This document shows, in pieces, positions 14,278-61,975 of a stretch of 64,000 bases of DNA. A program made the position numbers and the translations under genes. The notes under the pieces are model-generated. The model was not told the DNA's origin. It ran no database searches and saw only the letters and a list, made by a program, of their open reading frames with translations. Origin of the DNA: a virus; IMG/VR virus record IMGVR_UViG_3300023179_000062, positions 21,487-85,486 of that record; one strand, written 5' to 3'. Every line of letters starts with the position of its first letter. Position 1 is the stretch's first letter.

Positions 14278-14433
14278 ATGAATTTCTTAGAATTATTAAT
14301 GTGTGAAGAGGATGATGCCGGAATAATGGTTATGCCAGATATTAATCAATTTCATGATGATGCCATATATATTACAGATTTTAGTAAATCATTAAATCTC
14401 TACCAACCGGACGATTGTACCATAGAATCCTAA
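14278..14433 (+). CDS. small acidic ORF (51 aa), not in the ORF track
   Basis: MNFLELLMCEEDDAG... read directly; its end overlaps the convergent PAS gene. Confidence 0.3.
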   Translation: MNFLELLMCEEDDAGIMVMPDINQFHDDAIYITDFSKSLNLYQPDDCTIES

Positions 14434-15027
14434 AACCTTCCCGTCAATTGATTTATGGGCAACAGCGGTTGTTCTAACTCTGAATCTTTTTTTAGTATTA
14501 TGGTTCATAACAGTGTATTCCGCTTCATATGGAATATCAAGCGCAATGCTCTCGTTCCATTGTTTCCATACATATGCACGATCATCGCCTAACACACCTG
14601 ATAACCATCCACTACCTAGACAGTCTTCAAAGGTAAGACCGAACATATCACATAATGCTTTATTAACCCATGTACATTCTCCATTTGGAGCACATTCGTA
14701 TGCACCTGTGGTGATTAAATTATTAGCAATCATTTTGGAGCGTAACTCTGCTAAAGACACTGCATCATTAATTCTATTAATTTGATCTTTTATAGATTTT
14801 CCTCCATTTTTAGAGAATTCATTTTTTAATGAATTTATAATAGGTAAAACTTCTTCGTTTAAGGTTTTACATATCGCTGCTTGCTCGTCCACATGATTTT
14901 TTGTAAAATCTAGTATTTTCCGTATAGGTGTAATTATTAGTTTCCAGCCACCCCATAGAACACCTATTAAAGTGACAAGCCCCACTAAAATCTCTATTGC
15001 TGCTTGTAAAATTAATAATGTTTCCAT
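14392..15027 (-). CDS. membrane-anchored PAS-domain protein (holin-like candidate)
   Basis: One N-terminal TM helix, coiled coil with NGGKSIKD, PAS motif G.CTWVN.A...MFG....D.LG.GW....DDR..V...W; late box 15036-15041. Confidence 0.8.
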   Translation of the reverse strand: METLLILQAAIEILVGLVTLIGVLWGGWKLIITPIRKILDFTKNHVDEQAAICKTLNEEVLPIINSLKNEFSKNGGKSIKDQINRINDAVSLAELRSKMIANNLITTGAYECAPNGECTWVNKALCDMFGLTFEDCLGSGWLSGVLGDDRAYVWKQWNESIALDIPYEAEYTVMNHNTKKRFRVRTTAVAHKSIDGKVLGFYGTIVRLVEI

Positions 15028-15063
15028 GTATAATTTATTTATAAATACACGATAAACATATGA

Positions 15064-15252
15064 TTATTCTTCGTATTTTTTAATTATGTTAGCAACCATT
15101 TCCAGAGTCTCTTTCAAAATATCTGCGTCCTGTAATGTTATAGTTAATGGACTTTTATTTAAAATATTTACTAAATGGCTCCAATGCGCAAGTAATTGAT
15201 TTTTTGATATAGGCGTCGATGTATTAGGAAGATTATCCATGATATTATTCAA
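15064..15252 (-). CDS. hypothetical protein
   Basis: 62 aa, coupled to the upstream ORF. Confidence 0.5.
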   Translation of the reverse strand: MNNIMDNLPNTSTPISKNQLLAHWSHLVNILNKSPLTITLQDADILKETLEMVANIIKKYEE

Positions 15253-15559
15253 TATTTATTGTGCCTGTATCATCAATGCTATAATTTATAGTAGGTGTAA
15301 AATCTTCTGAAGATATTGCAGTAGGGTCCAGCATAGTTATAGCTTGTAACAATAGAGTAAAACGATTAAATGCTAGTTGACCATTTGTTCCCAACTCTTT
15401 TGCTATTTCTTGAGGTGTTACTCGATCATTTTTCCAAAATAATTCAAAGGCGGTTGTCGCTTTTTGAACTAACTCTGTTACAATAGAAGTATTTAATTGT
15501 TGCATAGTTTCCAATGCTTCTTGTGCGGGTGTCAGTCTTGGAGGAGTGAATAGTATCAT
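15245..15559 (-). CDS. hypothetical protein downstream of fibre genes (possible fibre chaperone)
   Basis: 104 aa; late box 15565-15570; function inferred from position only. Confidence 0.55.
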   Translation of the reverse strand: MILFTPPRLTPAQEALETMQQLNTSIVTELVQKATTAFELFWKNDRVTPQEIAKELGTNGQLAFNRFTLLLQAITMLDPTAISSEDFTPTINYSIDDTGTINIE

Positions 15560-15583
15560 AATAATATTTATTGTATTAAATAA

Positions 15584-16471
15584 TTAATTACAAACCCAAT
15601 TAGTCCCATTATAAAATACTGGAGTGATTATTGCTCCCCCACCCACCACCGCTACCAAATAAGAAGGAGCTAGAGCATCGGTAACAAAGGCGGTATCACC
15701 TCGAGTACCTGTAGGTAAGGTTTCTACAGTATAGCCTTTTAATCTGGCTGTGGAACTATATATTACGGGATAATTAAATGTGGTATTCCCCGTGGTTCCG
15801 TCGATTGATACACGAGAAGTATTGTTAGTTATTAATTGTAAATCTCTATAGTTTCCTCCTCCGCTTCCTGCCTGTGTACCCACTTGAAATATGTTGGATG
15901 TCCATGCTAACACGCCAGTCTCGTAGTTGGTACTTGATGTCCATGTATTATATATTCGCACTGTTTGAGCATTGGTGGTAGTTTGTCCCCTAATTTCTAA
16001 TGTATTTGCAATATATCCAGACAACCCGGTACTAGATACCCCCCGCCAATGCAACACCCATGAATCCCATATCTGCACACCGCCACCATTGCCGGTGGTG
16101 ACGCTGGGGTGTACTAGTAATATGCCGTCTCCTAGTTGATCCCCGCCATTATCACCATATCCATAAACTGTACGAATAGCTGCCTTGCCTGTAGTATCTA
16201 AACTATAAATTGAAGTACCGGTGGTGTTTTTATAATCAACTATGTTGCCTGCAAAAGATGTAGGTGTAACTGATCCAAAAATAGTACCAGATGCATGCCA
16301 TGAAGTAGGTGCTGCAACATTTCTAGGTTTAAAATAGAAATGAGGAGTGTTGGTGGTTGTGCTACCTCTGGTGTAAGGCAAACCTGTTAATAAACATGCA
16401 GGTGTATTTGCTCCACTATCAAAATCATTGATAGGGAAAGTCGTAAAAGGTGTATGGAACAAATGAGTCAT
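15584..16471 (-). CDS. tail fibre/receptor-binding-like protein
   Basis: Thr/Gly-rich; C-terminal YTV.TLP...G..AFVTDA...PVFYNGTNW module typical of fibre ends; TAATG coupling at 16471. Confidence 0.65.
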   Translation of the reverse strand: MTHLFHTPFTTFPINDFDSGANTPACLLTGLPYTRGSTTTNTPHFYFKPRNVAAPTSWHASGTIFGSVTPTSFAGNIVDYKNTTGTSIYSLDTTGKAAIRTVYGYGDNGGDQLGDGILLVHPSVTTGNGGGVQIWDSWVLHWRGVSSTGLSGYIANTLEIRGQTTTNAQTVRIYNTWTSSTNYETGVLAWTSNIFQVGTQAGSGGGNYRDLQLITNNTSRVSIDGTTGNTTFNYPVIYSSTARLKGYTVETLPTGTRGDTAFVTDALAPSYLVAVVGGGAIITPVFYNGTNWVCN

Positions 16472-16887
16472 TAGTATTTTCCGCCAATTATAGTTACATA
16501 GTATCCTGCTGCTACTGTTGTCCCTATAGTTACATTTAATTTATAACCCGGTGGTAAAGCAAAATTTAATATAATCTCTTGGTTAGTTAATTGAGCAACT
16601 TCTGAATTAGTGGTTGCGGGTAATGTTATGTCTTCATATAAAATATTATTTGCGGCTGTTGCATTGGTGCCACCATTATTGATAAAAACACGCGCAACTG
16701 TTGCAACATTAGTTCCTGCTGCACGGAAACGAATTTTCTGAACATATCCCCCATTTGTTGCATCTGCTGTGAATGCTGTTAACACTGTTCCTGTTCCATC
16801 CTTTGCAGTGTTTGCTGTTGTGATTGCTGTTGTTCCCCATTGAATATCTGGAGATAATGTATAAATTGGATTGGTATTTGCAGCCAT
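16471..16887 (-). CDS. virion structural protein (fibre-associated)
   Basis: MAANTNPIY...ANTAKDGTGT...VARVFIN...GGKY pattern seen in phage fibre loci; late box 16898-16903. Confidence 0.6.
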   Translation of the reverse strand: MAANTNPIYTLSPDIQWGTTAITTANTAKDGTGTVLTAFTADATNGGYVQKIRFRAAGTNVATVARVFINNGGTNATAANNILYEDITLPATTNSEVAQLTNQEIILNFALPPGYKLNVTIGTTVAAGYYVTIIGGKY

Positions 16888-16907
16888 AGTATATTACTAT
16901 TTATCTC

Positions 16908-19142
16908 TTAATATGTCATTGCTGTATTGACCATAGCCAATATTTTTCCCATTGATACTCCTTGCCATGTAGTTGCACTGTTAGATCGAACAGTAGTATA
17001 TACATTATTCCAATTAGCACTTAATGTATTAACATTAGAATAAACACTTGAATTGTTAGCAGATTGTGTATTAGTTGAGGTATATACTGAATTATTATTT
17101 GCACTTTGAGTGGAAAATGATGTGTAGGTGTTTTGCCAACTAGCTGTCAATGATTTAACATCAGTTCCCTGATAATTCCATTGAACGGCTGAATTAGTAT
17201 TAACAGTGGAATAAACCGACATATTATTCGCACTATTAGAATTGGTATTAGAATAAACTGAATTCCAGTTAGCACTATTAGAATTTACTGTAGTAAAATT
17301 ACTTAGATTATTTGCACTCTGTGTATTTAGAGTGGTGTATGATGAATTTACATTATCTACAACAGTGGTTAAACCACTAATCTTTGATTGATTTATATTT
17401 GCAGCAGAGGCAACATCTACGTCAACTAAAAGAGAAGCAGGTGTTTGTGTAACCCCGTCAACAACTTTTACTAACCCTGTTCCTCCGACAAAAGGTATAG
17501 TAGAGTGTAAATGTGATGGAGTGGAATCCCCAAATGCCAATGTTACAGTTTTATTATTGGCAGTTGCTTTTGCTCCAATTTCTACATATATTCTATCAGA
17601 TAATGATACAGTTTTCTGTGGAACTAAACACGACATTGACTGCTGAATAAATATTCCATTATTAGTTAATACTGCATCATTGGATGTGGAAAGTAAAACA
17701 GGCGCATTTATTCCATCATAAGTATAAACTATTACCTGTAATACGGTTGGATTATTAGTATTGGCATTGGAATATCCCCATACATTAAAATCCCAAATAC
17801 CACCGGGTATAGTAGTAGTGTTCGGGTCTAACGCATCTGTTACAAAACCGGCAATCAATGTATAATTGAGTTGTGAAACAACTCCACTTGTATATATTGT
17901 TTGAGCACTTAATCCTAAACTTCCTAATTGCTTTGCAGTTAAGGGAAGATTGGTTGTGGGTGATTGTGCTAATATGGCTTGATTGAAATAATATATTTTT
18001 CCCCCTCCTGATCCACCAGTCCCCGAGGCCCATGTTGCAGAATTAGTATTAACTGTGGTATATACAGAAACATTATTTGCACTATTACTATTAGTAGTGG
18101 AATATACTGATAAATTATTAGCCGATTGAGTGCTAAAATTAGTAAAAGTATTTTGCCAATTACCTGTAAGAGATTTGATATCCGTTCCTTGATAATTCCA
18201 ATTTGATGCGGAATTACTATTAACAGTTGTGTAAACTGATGCATTATTGGCAGATTGTGTATTAAAAGAACTATATACATTATTCCATTTATTACTGTCG
18301 CCACCTGTAACAGTAATAACCCCATTAACATCTAATTTTGTGGTAGGAGTTATTGTGCCAATACCAACATTACCAATATTTTCTGTTAATATTAAATTTG
18401 TATTAGGATTAATTGTAATATTATTGCCTGCCCCTATGCCAAAATCTCCATAGGAATTTCCTATATTCGCAGAATCTATATTAAAATATAAAGGGTCGTT
18501 ATTAATTCCTATACTGCCAGTCAATTTGCCACCACTTAAAGGAAGATATGTTGAATCGGTAAATTCCTTTGTTACAAGCGTGGCAGAAGCACTATTCCAT
18601 GAAGAAAATGCATCGTTCCAATTAGCAGAATTTGTATATACTTCTGTGAGAACAGATGAATCTATTCCTACTCCAGTTAGGGTTGCCCCGTTCCAATCAA
18701 GCATAACATCTCCATTAGCATTATGTAATATACGCGCATTGGGATCAATGCTATTAATATTACTGCTATCTAAAATATTAGAACCTGATAAAAATGATAA
18801 AGGAGAACCTAGCGGAAGTGTTCGAACGGTTGATCCGTCTTGTTCATAATTAGTTAACCGACCTGCTTGATAATTTAATTCATAGTCAAGTGAACAGCGC
18901 AAGGAAATACCTTTATTTCCGCCAGTAAATTGATCAGTAGTTCCTTGAACCAATCTTGATCCATTTTGAAATGATATGGCGGCACTCTCAGACATAGTTC
19001 CACCTGATAAAGGAAGATACCCGTTTTGAATATTATCTATTGTGGCACTAATTAAATTAAAATTACTTTGAACATCTGTTGATATAGATGTTCCAAATTT
19101 TCGATTTAATTCTGCTTGAAGATTTTGTTGTTCAGGTGTCAT
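16908..19142 (-). CDS. tail fibre protein with internal repeats
   Basis: YLPLSGG twice, GNVGIGT..P..KLDVNG, two blocks of (S/T)QSANN.SVY.T.N.NSA repeats. Confidence 0.75.
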   Translation of the reverse strand: MTPEQQNLQAELNRKFGTSISTDVQSNFNLISATIDNIQNGYLPLSGGTMSESAAISFQNGSRLVQGTTDQFTGGNKGISLRCSLDYELNYQAGRLTNYEQDGSTVRTLPLGSPLSFLSGSNILDSSNINSIDPNARILHNANGDVMLDWNGATLTGVGIDSSVLTEVYTNSANWNDAFSSWNSASATLVTKEFTDSTYLPLSGGKLTGSIGINNDPLYFNIDSANIGNSYGDFGIGAGNNITINPNTNLILTENIGNVGIGTITPTTKLDVNGVITVTGGDSNKWNNVYSSFNTQSANNASVYTTVNSNSASNWNYQGTDIKSLTGNWQNTFTNFSTQSANNLSVYSTTNSNSANNVSVYTTVNTNSATWASGTGGSGGGKIYYFNQAILAQSPTTNLPLTAKQLGSLGLSAQTIYTSGVVSQLNYTLIAGFVTDALDPNTTTIPGGIWDFNVWGYSNANTNNPTVLQVIVYTYDGINAPVLLSTSNDAVLTNNGIFIQQSMSCLVPQKTVSLSDRIYVEIGAKATANNKTVTLAFGDSTPSHLHSTIPFVGGTGLVKVVDGVTQTPASLLVDVDVASAANINQSKISGLTTVVDNVNSSYTTLNTQSANNLSNFTTVNSNSANWNSVYSNTNSNSANNMSVYSTVNTNSAVQWNYQGTDVKSLTASWQNTYTSFSTQSANNNSVYTSTNTQSANNSSVYSNVNTLSANWNNVYTTVRSNSATTWQGVSMGKILAMVNTAMTY

Positions 19143-19160
19143 TATCTAATTATTTAATAT

Positions 19161-20078
19161 TTAATCTCGGTCTTCCCAATTTCCTACATAATTAAGGGCA
19201 ACCCATTTATAAGGAACGGGTATATTCCAGTTAACCGTAGCTATTCCTTGATCGGTTTTGGTTAATGATTCGGGATCAACCACATCAATATATTCTCCAT
19301 TAATAAATGTGCCTGATACATTACTAAGAAGAGTGAAATAGTCTGATATATGATATACAAAATTGCCCAATGCACTACTTGTTCGCCCCATGACAGTATC
19401 ACCTAAATTAAAAATACCATTCCATGCATATACCCACATTTGCACTTCATTCACGGGTAACACCATTAATTCTAAATAATTACCAACATCACTTGCATAA
19501 CAAGAATATTGTGCCATTTGTCGTCCTATACGAAAACACCATGTACCTGTATCATCTGCGATATTAGGATATACAGAGAATCTAGTAGTTGATTCGGGTC
19601 TAGTCGAAAGAAATTTAAAAACTCCTTGTCCTAGACATGCAGATAATGGAGGTAAACGGAAATTTATACTACTCCAATATGGGGTGGATTGGTCGGTTAT
19701 AATTAATCCTGCCTGTTCTACTGTAAGAGGAACTTGATACCATCCTGATACAACAGCAGAAGAAATAAAGATACTATTCATCCATGATGCTGAATGAGTT
19801 TGAACAATAGTGGTCGTGTCGTTATTACCGCCTCCCCATCCAGCAGATAGAGAACTTACTGTATTATAATTACTATCATAATTAATAATTTTAGCATCTG
19901 TAAGACTTTCATCATTTAAAAATATATTAGTGGCGCTTAAATCGCCTGTGAGGGTTCCACCAGTCAGCGGCAGATAATTAACCAATAAATTACCCACTAC
20001 TTGGTTAAAATCTGTAATATCTTTAACCGTATGGGTATGGGAAATCTTTTTGGTTACTATTTGCTGAGAACAACTCAT
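19161..20078 (-). CDS. fibre-like structural protein
   Basis: HTHTVKDITDF and YLPLTGGTLTG fibre motifs; late box 20084-20089. Confidence 0.65.
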   Translation of the reverse strand: MSCSQQIVTKKISHTHTVKDITDFNQVVGNLLVNYLPLTGGTLTGDLSATNIFLNDESLTDAKIINYDSNYNTVSSLSAGWGGGNNDTTTIVQTHSASWMNSIFISSAVVSGWYQVPLTVEQAGLIITDQSTPYWSSINFRLPPLSACLGQGVFKFLSTRPESTTRFSVYPNIADDTGTWCFRIGRQMAQYSCYASDVGNYLELMVLPVNEVQMWVYAWNGIFNLGDTVMGRTSSALGNFVYHISDYFTLLSNVSGTFINGEYIDVVDPESLTKTDQGIATVNWNIPVPYKWVALNYVGNWEDRD

Positions 20079-20086
20079 AGTTTTAT

Positions 20087-21352
20087 TTATTGTAAATCAG
20101 TTACCGTGATTTCTCCCAACTGCATTAACTCTCTAATCTGTTCAAGAATAGCTTCTCGATTTATGCCTTCAGGCTCATAATAGATAATATCTTCTGTATC
20201 GCTTATAAGAGTTGGGGCGTTTAGATCACTGGTTATGATTAATCCATTTAAATATGGAAATTGTTCTACGCACCAATTATAGTGTTCGGGCAGATTTATT
20301 GGGTAAGGATTTTCTGAGCGGCTACATCTATTCGCATCTTTGGTAAGTCTGCTCCATCCGCAATCTGTTACTGCAATGATATCTGTAAATCCTATAACCT
20401 TTGCAGCAGGTAAATCAAATGATAACTTCTGTGGTGAGAATATTGAATATTCAGAAATGGGATAACCATTGAAAACTGATCCATCAGGGGCATTATATGC
20501 AGACATTGGATACATCGACGAGTCGCTTCCGCTTACAAATAAACTAGTAACTCTCTCAAATCCGCCACCTTCTACTGTAATAGTAGGAGTATCAGTAGTT
20601 TTGAAATAATATTTATCAATATAGCGCAATTGTGGTACTCCTGATATAGAATAGGATTCAGTAACATTATCAGCAGTATTAGATGATAATTTATCATAAT
20701 CACATGATAGCATATCAGTAATGACTATATCATCATATATAAAGCATATAGGTTTTACTGGTTCTAATTCAGTTCTAAATAGCCATGTTTTTATGACCAT
20801 ATTAAGTGTTGCACTTAATCTATAAGATTTATCATTAGGTAAATCTCCACCCACTGTTGGATATTCAATCGCAACTTGTCCATCCCAATTAACTTCCACA
20901 TTTAATTTTTTACCTGTTTTTGGTTCTTTTAGTGAATAAACTAAATATGGATTAATAAATAAAGCGATATTTTGGATAATTTGATCCATATCCTGTTGAT
21001 ATTTGCTAAGGATATTCAATTGAACATTAATATTCCAAGGTATAGGACGAATATTAATGTATCCTCCTTTTGGATTTTGATAAACGATGTCTTGAATTTT
21101 ATTTTTATTACGTGCATCGTCCCGGCCCATACCTGTCATTGTCATACCTATAATAGGAAATTTGATAGTATCTGGCTGTCCTTTAATATCTTGTAAAATA
21201 CGAGTTTTTGGACCATAAACAAAATTAACCTTAATTCTATCGGTCATTTTTTCGTTCATGTCTTCATAACGACGAATCTCTATATCGTCTAAAGCAGACT
21301 CAAGCATCTTCAAATTTTTGGTAATTTCGAAATTATAGTTATATTCGTTCAC
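20087..21352 (-). CDS. gp15: tail sheath stabilizer/terminator (gp15-like) with C-terminal Ig/IPT-like extension
   Basis: I.V..VYGPK...D..RNKNK...PIPWNINVQL.I.SKYQ.DMDQI.QNI...F.P; GTG start with late box 21361-21366. Confidence 0.8.
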   Translation of the reverse strand: MNEYNYNFEITKNLKMLESALDDIEIRRYEDMNEKMTDRIKVNFVYGPKTRILQDIKGQPDTIKFPIIGMTMTGMGRDDARNKNKIQDIVYQNPKGGYINIRPIPWNINVQLNILSKYQQDMDQIIQNIALFINPYLVYSLKEPKTGKKLNVEVNWDGQVAIEYPTVGGDLPNDKSYRLSATLNMVIKTWLFRTELEPVKPICFIYDDIVITDMLSCDYDKLSSNTADNVTESYSISGVPQLRYIDKYYFKTTDTPTITVEGGGFERVTSLFVSGSDSSMYPMSAYNAPDGSVFNGYPISEYSIFSPQKLSFDLPAAKVIGFTDIIAVTDCGWSRLTKDANRCSRSENPYPINLPEHYNWCVEQFPYLNGLIITSDLNAPTLISDTEDIIYYEPEGINREAILEQIRELMQLGEITVTDLQ

Positions 21353-31345: not shown

Positions 31346-31531
31346 TTAATAAGTGTCAATAATTTCTTTAGCTTCTTGTTCTGTCATTCCTAACGAGATT
31401 AACCATTTAATCTCTTCTTCATATGTCATTGGTGATGGACGCGGAGTAGGGTATGAGATACAAATGAGCCATAAAATGGGTATCCCTAATGCTAGTATGC
31501 CGAATAAACTTCCTATTATAATATGCCACAT
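31346..31531 (-). CDS. small membrane protein
   Basis: N-terminal hydrophobic helix; same strand as its neighbours. Confidence 0.55.
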   Translation of the reverse strand: MWHIIIGSLFGILALGIPILWLICISYPTPRPSPMTYEEEIKWLISLGMTEQEAKEIIDTY

Positions 31532-60877: not shown

Positions 60878-61471
60878 ATGGATGATAAAGAATTAAAGAA
60901 AAAGTATAAAGCTGATTATTATCGGAGAAATAAAGATAGAATTAGAGAACAACAGAGAATTTATCGCGAACAAAATCATGATAGTATCACTATTCAGAAA
61001 AAGAAAGACTATCTACAAAATAAAGAAATATATAAACATCGTACACGCCAATACCAATTGTCTAATAAAGATAAATGCCAAGATTATAATAAAATGTATT
61101 GGCAAAAAGAAAAGGATAAAATGATTGATATAGTGTATAAAGAAACAATTTTAATAAAAAATAGAGAAAAATTGAAAAGATATAGACAAAAACATGGGGA
61201 TAAAATTAAACAATATAAACTTTTGAATAGCGCAAAAAGTAATTTATATAAATCGAAACGACGTTGTAAACAAAACCAACATTCATTACCAATTAATAAT
61301 AAAATTATTACTACTATATATGAAACATCTAGGAGAATATCAAATTGTTTACAAATATCTTTTCATGTTGATCATATAATTCCAATATCAAAAGGAGGCA
61401 TTCATCATGAAAATAATCTTCAAATTTTACCAGCTATTATAAATCTCAGGAAAAGTGCTAAAATAATATAA
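60878..61471 (+). mobile_element. free-standing HNH homing endonuclease
   Basis: FHVDHIIPISKGG.H..NNLQIL...NL.KS preceded by K/R/Y-rich Y...NK(D/E) repeats. Confidence 0.85.
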
Positions 61472-61483
61472 ATAATTTATATT

Positions 61484-61975
61484 ATGACAGATAGATTTAA
61501 TAAATGGTTTGAGTGGTTGTTACTTTGGGAAGGTACTACTTTTGAGAATGACCCTGACGACCCCGGTGGCCGTACGAAATTCGGAATAGATCAACGTTCT
61601 CATCCTAAAGTTGACATTAAAAATTTAACTAAAGAGGGCGCTGCACAAATTTATTGGAATGAGTATTGGAACGCGGTTCATGCAGAAGAACTTCCTAAAG
61701 GAGTGGGGGAGGTGGTAGCAAACATCGCAGTCAATACAGGTAAAGGTAATGCGTCGCATTGGTTACAAAATGCCATTAAAGTTAATTCTGATGGAATTAT
61801 AGGCGAAAACACTATTAAAATATCTAATCAAGTATCTCCAAAAGATACTTGTGATAGATTACTAACTCATCTTGAAGAATTTTATAAATCAATTGCTACT
61901 GGCAAGAAAATAAAATATCTCAAGGGGTGGTTAAACCGCACAAAATCTCTACGAGATTTTATTACAACATTGTAA
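61484..61975 (+). CDS. glycoside hydrolase family 108 lysozyme (endolysin)
   Basis: EG....DPDDPGG.TKFGI...LT...A..IY...YW...VN.G...LQ...DG.IG..T...GWLNR. Confidence 0.92.
   Translation: MTDRFNKWFEWLLLWEGTTFENDPDDPGGRTKFGIDQRSHPKVDIKNLTKEGAAQIYWNEYWNAVHAEELPKGVGEVVANIAVNTGKGNASHWLQNAIKVNSDGIIGENTIKISNQVSPKDTCDRLLTHLEEFYKSIATGKKIKYLKGWLNRTKSLRDFITTL

Follow-up and report, generated by a model that had tools for sequence, protein, structure and literature searches.

A single-TM-helix PAS protein of a T4-like phage shares a module with a lysis-cassette-linked protein family and is a candidate holin-type protein

The length of the phage infection cycle is set by holins, whose known regulation involves antiholin proteins, dual starts and the proton motive force. 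Precedents for dedicated holin regulators are RI and RIII for the T4 holin T, and gp143 for the phiKZ holin. The T protein itself (gpt, class IIIA, Pfam Phage_holin_T) is the product of a late gene and comprises about 210-220 aa, with one TM helix and one large globular alpha/beta domain. A different layout is seen in LysF1b of cluster F1 mycobacteriophages (DUF2746), where a single N-terminal TMD of predicted N-out/C-in topology is followed by basic residues, a helical cytoplasmic part and a highly charged C-terminal helix; LysF1b is genetically required for efficient lysis that can be triggered by energy poisons, and is often encoded beside a 2-TMD protein (PMC13056207). In the jumbo-phage holin gp142 of phiKZ (class IIIB), a single TMD is combined with a large regulatory domain in the cytoplasm, to which a cytoplasmic lysis regulator binds (PMC12894885).

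Here we analyze a protein, P0001, encoded in a 64,000-nucleotide stretch of viral DNA (the window) that belongs to an 85.5-kb IMG/VR record (G000). In its size and its single TM helix joined to one large globular alpha/beta domain P0001 resembles T4 T, and its gene, too, is probably a late one. An initial annotation had drawn this comparison and proposed a sensor-coupled holin or lysis timer. That interpretation is partly supported and can be sharpened: P0001 is not a homologue of T but a PAS-fused member of a large protein family found in phage lysis cassettes.

Architecture and predicted fold of P0001

From its N-terminus P0001 comprises a TM helix, then a conserved helix corner (EFSKNGGKSIKDQINRI) and, at the C-terminal end, a PAS fold (Table 1). 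Most of the elements read from the sequence in the initial annotation were recovered in our analysis. The ORF is intact, the TM helix is followed by the basic residues K29, R36 and K37, and the NGGKSIKDQI segment (residues 74-83) is invariant or nearly so across 22 homologues. These homologues (205-226 aa, 39-77% identity) all have the whole architecture, and the close ones are located on contigs of 262-274 kb. Conservation peaks not in the PAS domain but in E70-FSK-N-G-G-K-S-I-K-D-QINRI, in which E70, N74, G76, S78 and I79 are invariant. Within the TM helix, GxxxG and E12 are each present in 16 of the 22 sequences.

Table 1. Features of the window discussed in the text
Feature	Position	Strand	Evidence or remark
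Gene for TM + helix-corner + PAS protein (P0001)	14392..15027	(-)	Intact ORF, 211 aa
TM helix, residues 5-28, with E12 and G22xxxG26 (GvLWGGW)	14944..15015	(-)	Hydropathy (KD) 2.35; charge bias
Helix-corner module, residues 62-93 (P62 ... E70-FSK-N74-G-G76-K-S78-I-K-D81-QINRI)	14749..14844	(-)	Invariant columns, hhalign, phrog_9869, AF2
PAS domain and its N-terminal flanking helix, residues 102-207	14407..14724	(-)	Pfam PAS_3/PAS_4, AF2, Foldseek/VIA
Late-promoter-like box of PAS gene, TATAAATA	15036..15043	(-)	Ends 8 nt before ATG
Late cluster upstream of PAS gene	15064..21352	(-)	gp15-like stabiliser, then six ORFs; phrog_227
gp15-like tail sheath stabiliser	20087-21352	(-)	Pfam T4-gp15_tss, E 2.5e-20
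Box of endolysin, TATAAATA	61467-61474		9 nt before its ATG
GH108 + PG_binding_3 endolysin	61484..61975	(+)	GH108 from residue 10; without signal/SAR segment

The complete PAS fold claimed earlier was borne out by profiles, model and superposition. PAS_3 matched with an E-value of 1.6e-9 (38.3 bits against a curated Pfam cut-off of 25.6) and PAS_4 with 26.4 bits (cut-off 23.1). In an AlphaFold2 (AF2) model built with the 22-sequence alignment (mean pLDDT 81.8), the PAS fold spans residues 108-207 at a pLDDT of about 91 and consists of a five-stranded sheet (strands 108-112, 118-121, 167-174, 181-192 and 198-207) with flanking helices. Its best PDB superposition was with 3h9w (VIA; Z 15.4, rmsd 2.0 over 105 residues). 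The Foldseek and VIA PDB lists contained PAS/LOV-type domains only; T4 T was absent from them, which excludes nothing. The LOV cysteine in NCRFL and the heme-binding histidine on F-alpha are cofactor motifs that define PAS sub-classes only. The NCRFL motif occurs in none of the 22 homologues and residues 145-165 hold no conserved F-alpha histidine; the PAS domain of P0001 therefore points to none of the known cofactor classes. An output domain and a kinase-like motif were also looked for in P0001, and neither was found. Searches by tblastn of INPHARED phages with P0001, with 10 kb of window DNA and with a PAS-fused relative from a second group (see below) returned no match, and residues 1-105 had no usable match in the ESM Atlas.

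Ahead of the PAS domain, where the initial annotation had placed a coiled coil, the model predicts two long helices, at residues 2-71 and 75-101, with a break at residues 72-74 (N74-G-G); confidence is low for residues 71-110. The N-G-G sequence would serve as a helix C-cap and S-x-x-D as a helix N-capping box, so that the invariant residues may most simply be understood as holding two helices at a rigid corner. Of these, the second would then lead straight into the first PAS strand and could offer a route from the state of the PAS domain to the TM helix. Two other readings of this region were considered and dropped: a P-loop at GGKS, since the upstream glycine is missing and the actinophage versions read SGSS, and a Lys-Asn isopeptide bond, since no lysine is invariant across the family.

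The distribution of charge around the TM helix was biased. In 21 of the 22 homologues, which are all those with a scored helix, no lysine or arginine precedes the helix and two to five follow it. By the positive-inside rule this predicts an N-out/C-in topology with the PAS domain on the cytoplasmic side, in agreement with the cytoplasmic C-terminus proposed in the initial annotation, and the reverse of the topology of T4 holin T. A cleavable signal peptide was rejected, there being no basic n-region, a hydrophobic run of 24 residues and no AxA site, as was an i-spanin, given that the soluble part of P0001 is predicted to be cytoplasmic.

The phrog_9869/phrog_15431 family and its gene neighbourhoods

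The corner of P0001 (residues 69-93) matched phrog_9869 in the PHROGs database with an E-value of 2.4e-4. When the alignment of the T4-like family (A1) was compared by hhalign with stand-alone proteins of the phrog_9869/phrog_15431 phage family, the two aligned over 25 columns with a probability of 96.4% (E 1.4e-9), and the corner motif E-x3-N-[GS]-G-x-S-[IL]-[KR]-D-x-[IV]-x-R-[IL] of that family is present in P0001. By sequence, the TM-plus-corner module is thus homologous to this family, although detectable homology between P0001 and the lysis-cassette proteins covers about 25-35 residues only. The stand-alone proteins have an FxRDWxG...PGVMERL segment between TMD and corner; A1 and the second PAS-fused group lack it, and only P62 aligns.

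The family is large. Among 1.84 billion proteins, at least 1403 representative clusters matched a profile of the module at E<=1e-3. The best 150 representatives comprised about 110 module-only proteins and 30 (about 20%) with a PAS domain; 129 of them matched phrog_9869, 68 matched phrog_15431, and none had a Pfam family covering the module. In the PAS-carrying members the PAS domain replaces the C-terminal coiled coil of the family. A scan of IMG/VR with the family alignment recovered full-length relatives and two further groups: a second PAS-fused group of 192-206 aa in unrelated phages, and a module-only group with many proteins of about 115-125 aa that consist of the TM helix and the motif alone. 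Stand-alone members range overall from 80 to 160 aa. We found no experimental study of them in the literature, and the 'holin' label attached to phrog_15431 and to RefSeq entries is annotation only.

In actinophages, stand-alone members were found in lysis cassettes. Streptomyces phage mu1/6 encodes endolysin gp50, holin gp51 and then gp52, which matches phrog_9869 with an E-value of 2e-32. In Arthrobacter phage Sonali the family member gp22 is followed by endolysin gp23 and holin gp24, and P1312_040 of Thermobifida phage P1312 overlaps an amidase gene. In the Arthrobacter phages Salgado, Laroye, LiSara and Wheelbite the family protein is annotated as holin and follows the tail genes. These isolates represent separate genome types.

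A neighbourhood survey of homologues, which the initial annotation had put forward as a check, extended this linkage to environmental phages. A stand-alone member was present on 334 IMG/VR contigs, of which 80 loci were taken and grouped at 70% identity into 26 clusters. Among the neighbour proteins no Pfam family was commoner than Peptidase_M23 (12 of 83), and CHAP, LysM and PASTA domains occurred too. In 13 of the 26 clusters the same strand carries, at a distance of 118-955 bp upstream, an M23 gene for a protein of 128-182 aa, separated from the module gene by zero to three small ORFs that often encode TM proteins; as the metagenomic loci have common synteny, these 13 are not independent events. 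One arrangement recurs among these loci (L035-L114), in which a small M23 gene and zero to three small TM ORFs are followed by the module protein of ~115-125 aa and then by conserved genes for proteins of ~200, ~87, ~99 and ~77 aa. The arrangement has the look of a lysis cassette, as yet uncharacterised, that belongs to a large environmental phage group.

Stand-alone relatives usually lie near other small, holin-like proteins with one or two TMDs, so P0001 may itself be a co-holin or regulator and the family an accessory one. In the second PAS-fused group, the PAS-fused gene of two contigs (L012 and L013) is directly followed by an ORF of ~68-70 aa with a holin-like 2-TMD pattern, and on three others (L008-L010) it is overlapped by a gene of the papain-fold C92-like type. 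The small TM ORFs near relatives in L012, L013 and L016 had no PHROG match. Several further genes were observed at these loci. A sigma-factor-like gene occurs two genes upstream in the second PAS-fused group (L008:8225-8710, L012:5602-6081, L013:8647-9162), a secreted trypsin-plus-thioredoxin protein of 626-643 aa is encoded two genes downstream in L008-L010, and the product of L012:8530-10608 (692 aa) bears signatures of intein/Hint and LAGLIDADG type.

Genome setting, late box and endolysin

The record contains a portal gene and a gp15-like sheath stabiliser of T4 type together with a GH108 endolysin, and is judged 33% complete, which places 67% of the genome outside it. Since its portal has only about 30% identity to those of cultured T4-like phages, no annotated relative exists.

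The TAAATA box described in the initial annotation is part of a full TATAAATA box that is common to the PAS gene and the endolysin gene. The PAS gene probably belongs to the late class, judging from the likeness of this box to T4 late promoters. Of 79 ORFs in the window, 43 have a TAAATA whose last base falls 3-12 nt ahead of the start; the corresponding rate at random positions is 0.75%. We observed that the spacing from TAAATA to the start (gene starts, window 405-61484) is too tight for a normal leader or a Shine-Dalgarno site.

As the initial annotation had stated, the endolysin has no obvious export signal: no hydrophobic segment was found in it, and its GH108 domain starts close to the N-terminus (Table 1). 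Such an enzyme needs a hole-forming holin, and the GH108 endolysin is the presumed client of the holin system. Its gene lies 46 kb from the PAS gene in the window. An HNH endonuclease gene (window 60878-61471, +) is located directly upstream of it.

The genes that adjoin the PAS gene are fibre-like and neck genes, and no TM-protein, endolysin or holin-like gene is among them. The six ORFs between the stabiliser and the PAS gene had no family match in a Pfam scan; LPLSGGT-type motifs and repeats suggest that they are putative fibres. In six T4-like relatives (L002-L007; one contig ends within the gene), the PAS gene is likewise terminal in a variable fibre-like cluster. The fibre-like ORFs vary freely among these relatives while the PAS gene stays conserved, and beyond it, where the sequence goes on, conserved neck and portal genes face it. 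This position at the cluster end is kept down to 37% identity. No partner TM gene adjoins the PAS gene in any of the six. A 51-aa ORF (window 14278-14433, +) is convergent with the PAS gene and covers its last 42 nt, and a convergent ORF of 53-64 aa lies over the end of the PAS gene in L002, L003, L004 and L006; its position is kept, and no match by sequence was found.

Small membrane ORFs in the window are limited to the PAS protein and a 61-aa ORF (31346-31531, -), which has a single strong TM helix at its N-terminus, lacks a late box and had no match in PHROGs. Three further genes were observed in the part of the record before the window. Two of them, both on the plus strand, lie in the early-looking region: G000:C1:1855-2019 encodes 54 aa with two TM helices and comes after a long perfect hairpin, and G000:C1:2073-2525 encodes 150 aa with four TM helices. 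A late outer-membrane lipoprotein of 144 aa (G000:C1:11260-11694, -) has an LTGC lipobox and GTAAATA 7 nt before its ATG, and could be a lysis component of the spanin type. With three such TM ORFs in a record that is one-third complete, the earlier remark that no other holin is evident carries little weight.

Possible roles and comparison with known systems

We tentatively interpret P0001 as a lysis protein of the holin type that serves the GH108 endolysin, which has no signal of its own, with the PAS as a regulatory domain, and give this reading a probability of about 0.42. P0001 would most likely be a hole former or a co-holin that carries a cytoplasmic PAS domain in place of the C-terminal coiled coil of the family. 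The protein would build up in the inner membrane late in infection of a T4-like jumbo phage and could self-associate through its GxxxG-bearing TM helix. Once assembled it would form, or help a partner to form, a lesion that admits the endolysin to the wall. The PAS domain, attached through its N-terminal flanking helix to the rigid cytoplasmic corner (E-x3-N-G-G-x-S-I/L-K/R-D), would time this association by binding a partner or ligand. The initial lysis reading finds indirect backing in the occurrence of the module family in lysis cassettes, in the 2-TMD holin-like or C92-like genes next to PAS-fused relatives in other phages, in a gene position like that of T4 t and in the late box common with the endolysin; it is weakened by the relatives that lie beside other holin-like TM proteins. 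Speaking against a holin, moreover, a cytoplasmic motif this conserved is unusual for such proteins, the homology is short, the gene is 46 kb away from the endolysin gene with no TM-protein neighbour, and mu1/6 has a separate holin, gp51. A more specific form of the regulation, in which a small molecule of the cytoplasm or a redox cofactor is bound by the PAS domain, which then controls assembly of the TM helix via its N-terminal helix and the NGG/SxxD corner, appears quite unlikely. If it were true, the PAS-fused members would be ligand-gated holins, and in this clade the timing of phage lysis would for the first time be seen to depend directly on a chemical signal inside the cell. A holin-type protein with a cytoplasmic sensor would, in turn, mean that phages can tie the timing of lysis to the chemical state of the host.

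P0001 could also be purely a regulator of lysis, an antiholin or holin activator whose TM helix and corner dock on another protein, the holin proper, with a gene in the two-thirds of the genome outside the record, and with the PAS signal advancing or delaying its triggering. The nearly constant co-occurrence of stand-alone relatives with other small proteins of one or two TMDs would suit such a role, as would the separately annotated holins of mu1/6 and Sonali and the 2-TMD ORF that follows the PAS-fused gene in L012 and L013. A strongly conserved cytoplasmic motif is also more in keeping with a docking surface than with a hole former. However, the six T4-like relatives have no adjoining TM gene that might encode the partner, and the conserved GxxxG of the TM helix suits self-assembly too. 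The described precedent points both ways: LysF1a requires LysF1b to act, but LysF1b, which has the same topology as predicted for P0001, acts as a holin alone (PMC13056207). On balance we regard a purely regulatory role as possible but doubtful.

The cassette-linked homology itself bears on whether P0001 acts in lysis at all. It is short, and the PAS gene does not adjoin the endolysin gene, both of which would be compatible with a membrane-anchored PAS protein outside lysis, such as a late sensor, a decoy for host PAS kinases or other host factors, or a factor for superinfection or metabolic takeover. PAS domains commonly heterodimerise, and PAS proteins of phages and giant viruses exist, as seen among the BFVD matches. 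The part in common with other phages is nevertheless precisely the lysis-cassette-linked module, the box before the gene is late rather than early, and the gene keeps a fixed end position in a late structural cluster down to 37% identity. With neither an output domain nor a kinase-like motif found, we consider a role outside lysis unlikely, and the earlier suggestion that the protein jams a host PAS histidine kinase is unsupported. That same cluster position, as last gene after the fibre-like genes in all relatives, might instead reflect a role in morphogenesis, as a tether between the inner membrane and the assembly of fibres or tail, or a minor virion component, and this would explain co-transcription with the fibre-like genes. 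Weak PHROG matches of the helical part to tape-measure and minor-tail families (E 0.06-0.17) point in this direction. Against it, the upstream fibre-like genes vary freely while the PAS gene is conserved, stand-alone relatives are linked to endolysins and not to particular tail genes, and P0001 had no match to structural-protein families in Pfam and PHROGs, so that a morphogenetic role seems highly improbable.

Returning to the holin-type interpretation, the likeness to T4 T drawn in the initial annotation holds for size, the single TM helix and the position as last gene: t follows g34-g38 and faces asiA, and the PAS gene is likewise last after fibre-like genes. It does not extend to ancestry or orientation. 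No sequence homology between P0001 and T4 T was found (hhalign Prob 0.1; no PF11031 Pfam hit at E<=1), and T is N-in/C-out with a periplasmic domain, whereas P0001 is predicted to be N-out/C-in with a cytoplasmic PAS. Whole-chain fold matches in BFVD included T-type holins of Proteus phages, which were weak (E about 1e-2, TM 0.40-0.42). PF11031 was also not found in G000 and four relatives, records that are 10-33% complete.

Two described lysis proteins resemble P0001 in layout. LysF1b is like P0001 in the topology of its TMD and in the basic residues that follow it; it has no PAS domain and is known only from Gram-positive hosts. DUF2746 (PF10874) had no match in P0001, in the 150 family members or in G000, and a comparison of Tweety gp33 with alignment A2 (Prob 0.3) gave no detectable homology to the LysF1b type. 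The likeness to phiKZ gp142 is one of description only, and gp142 differs in being N-in/C-out, with a cytoplasmic domain that is N-terminal and not described as PAS (PMC12894885). Given these two precedents, the architecture of P0001 is plausible for a holin. A cytoplasmic PAS on a membrane effector is also seen in Aer, with its FAD-PAS, and in hERG/EAG/ELK channels, whose PAS domains have the same fold as that of P0001 (Z 13.1-14.4). P0001 differs from these in having no known cofactor, and its effector would be a single TM helix.

By sequence, the true relatives of P0001 are the stand-alone phrog_9869/phrog_15431 proteins, such as mu1/6 gp52, Sonali gp22 and Salgado gp72. Like P0001, they carry a TMD at the N-terminus, a charge bias around it and the corner motif (E-x3-N-G/S-G-x-S-I/L-K/R-D-x-V/I-x-R-I-E), and differ in their shorter length, the FxRDWxG...PGVMERL segment, a coiled-coil end and their position in lysis cassettes. 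The comparison exposes a large, unstudied family with one TMD, predicted to be N-out/C-in and tightly linked to endolysin genes, which spans actinophages to T4-like jumbo phages and is not covered by a Pfam model. We put this family forward as a candidate for a new component of lysis that can be compared with the LysF1b class, itself described recently.
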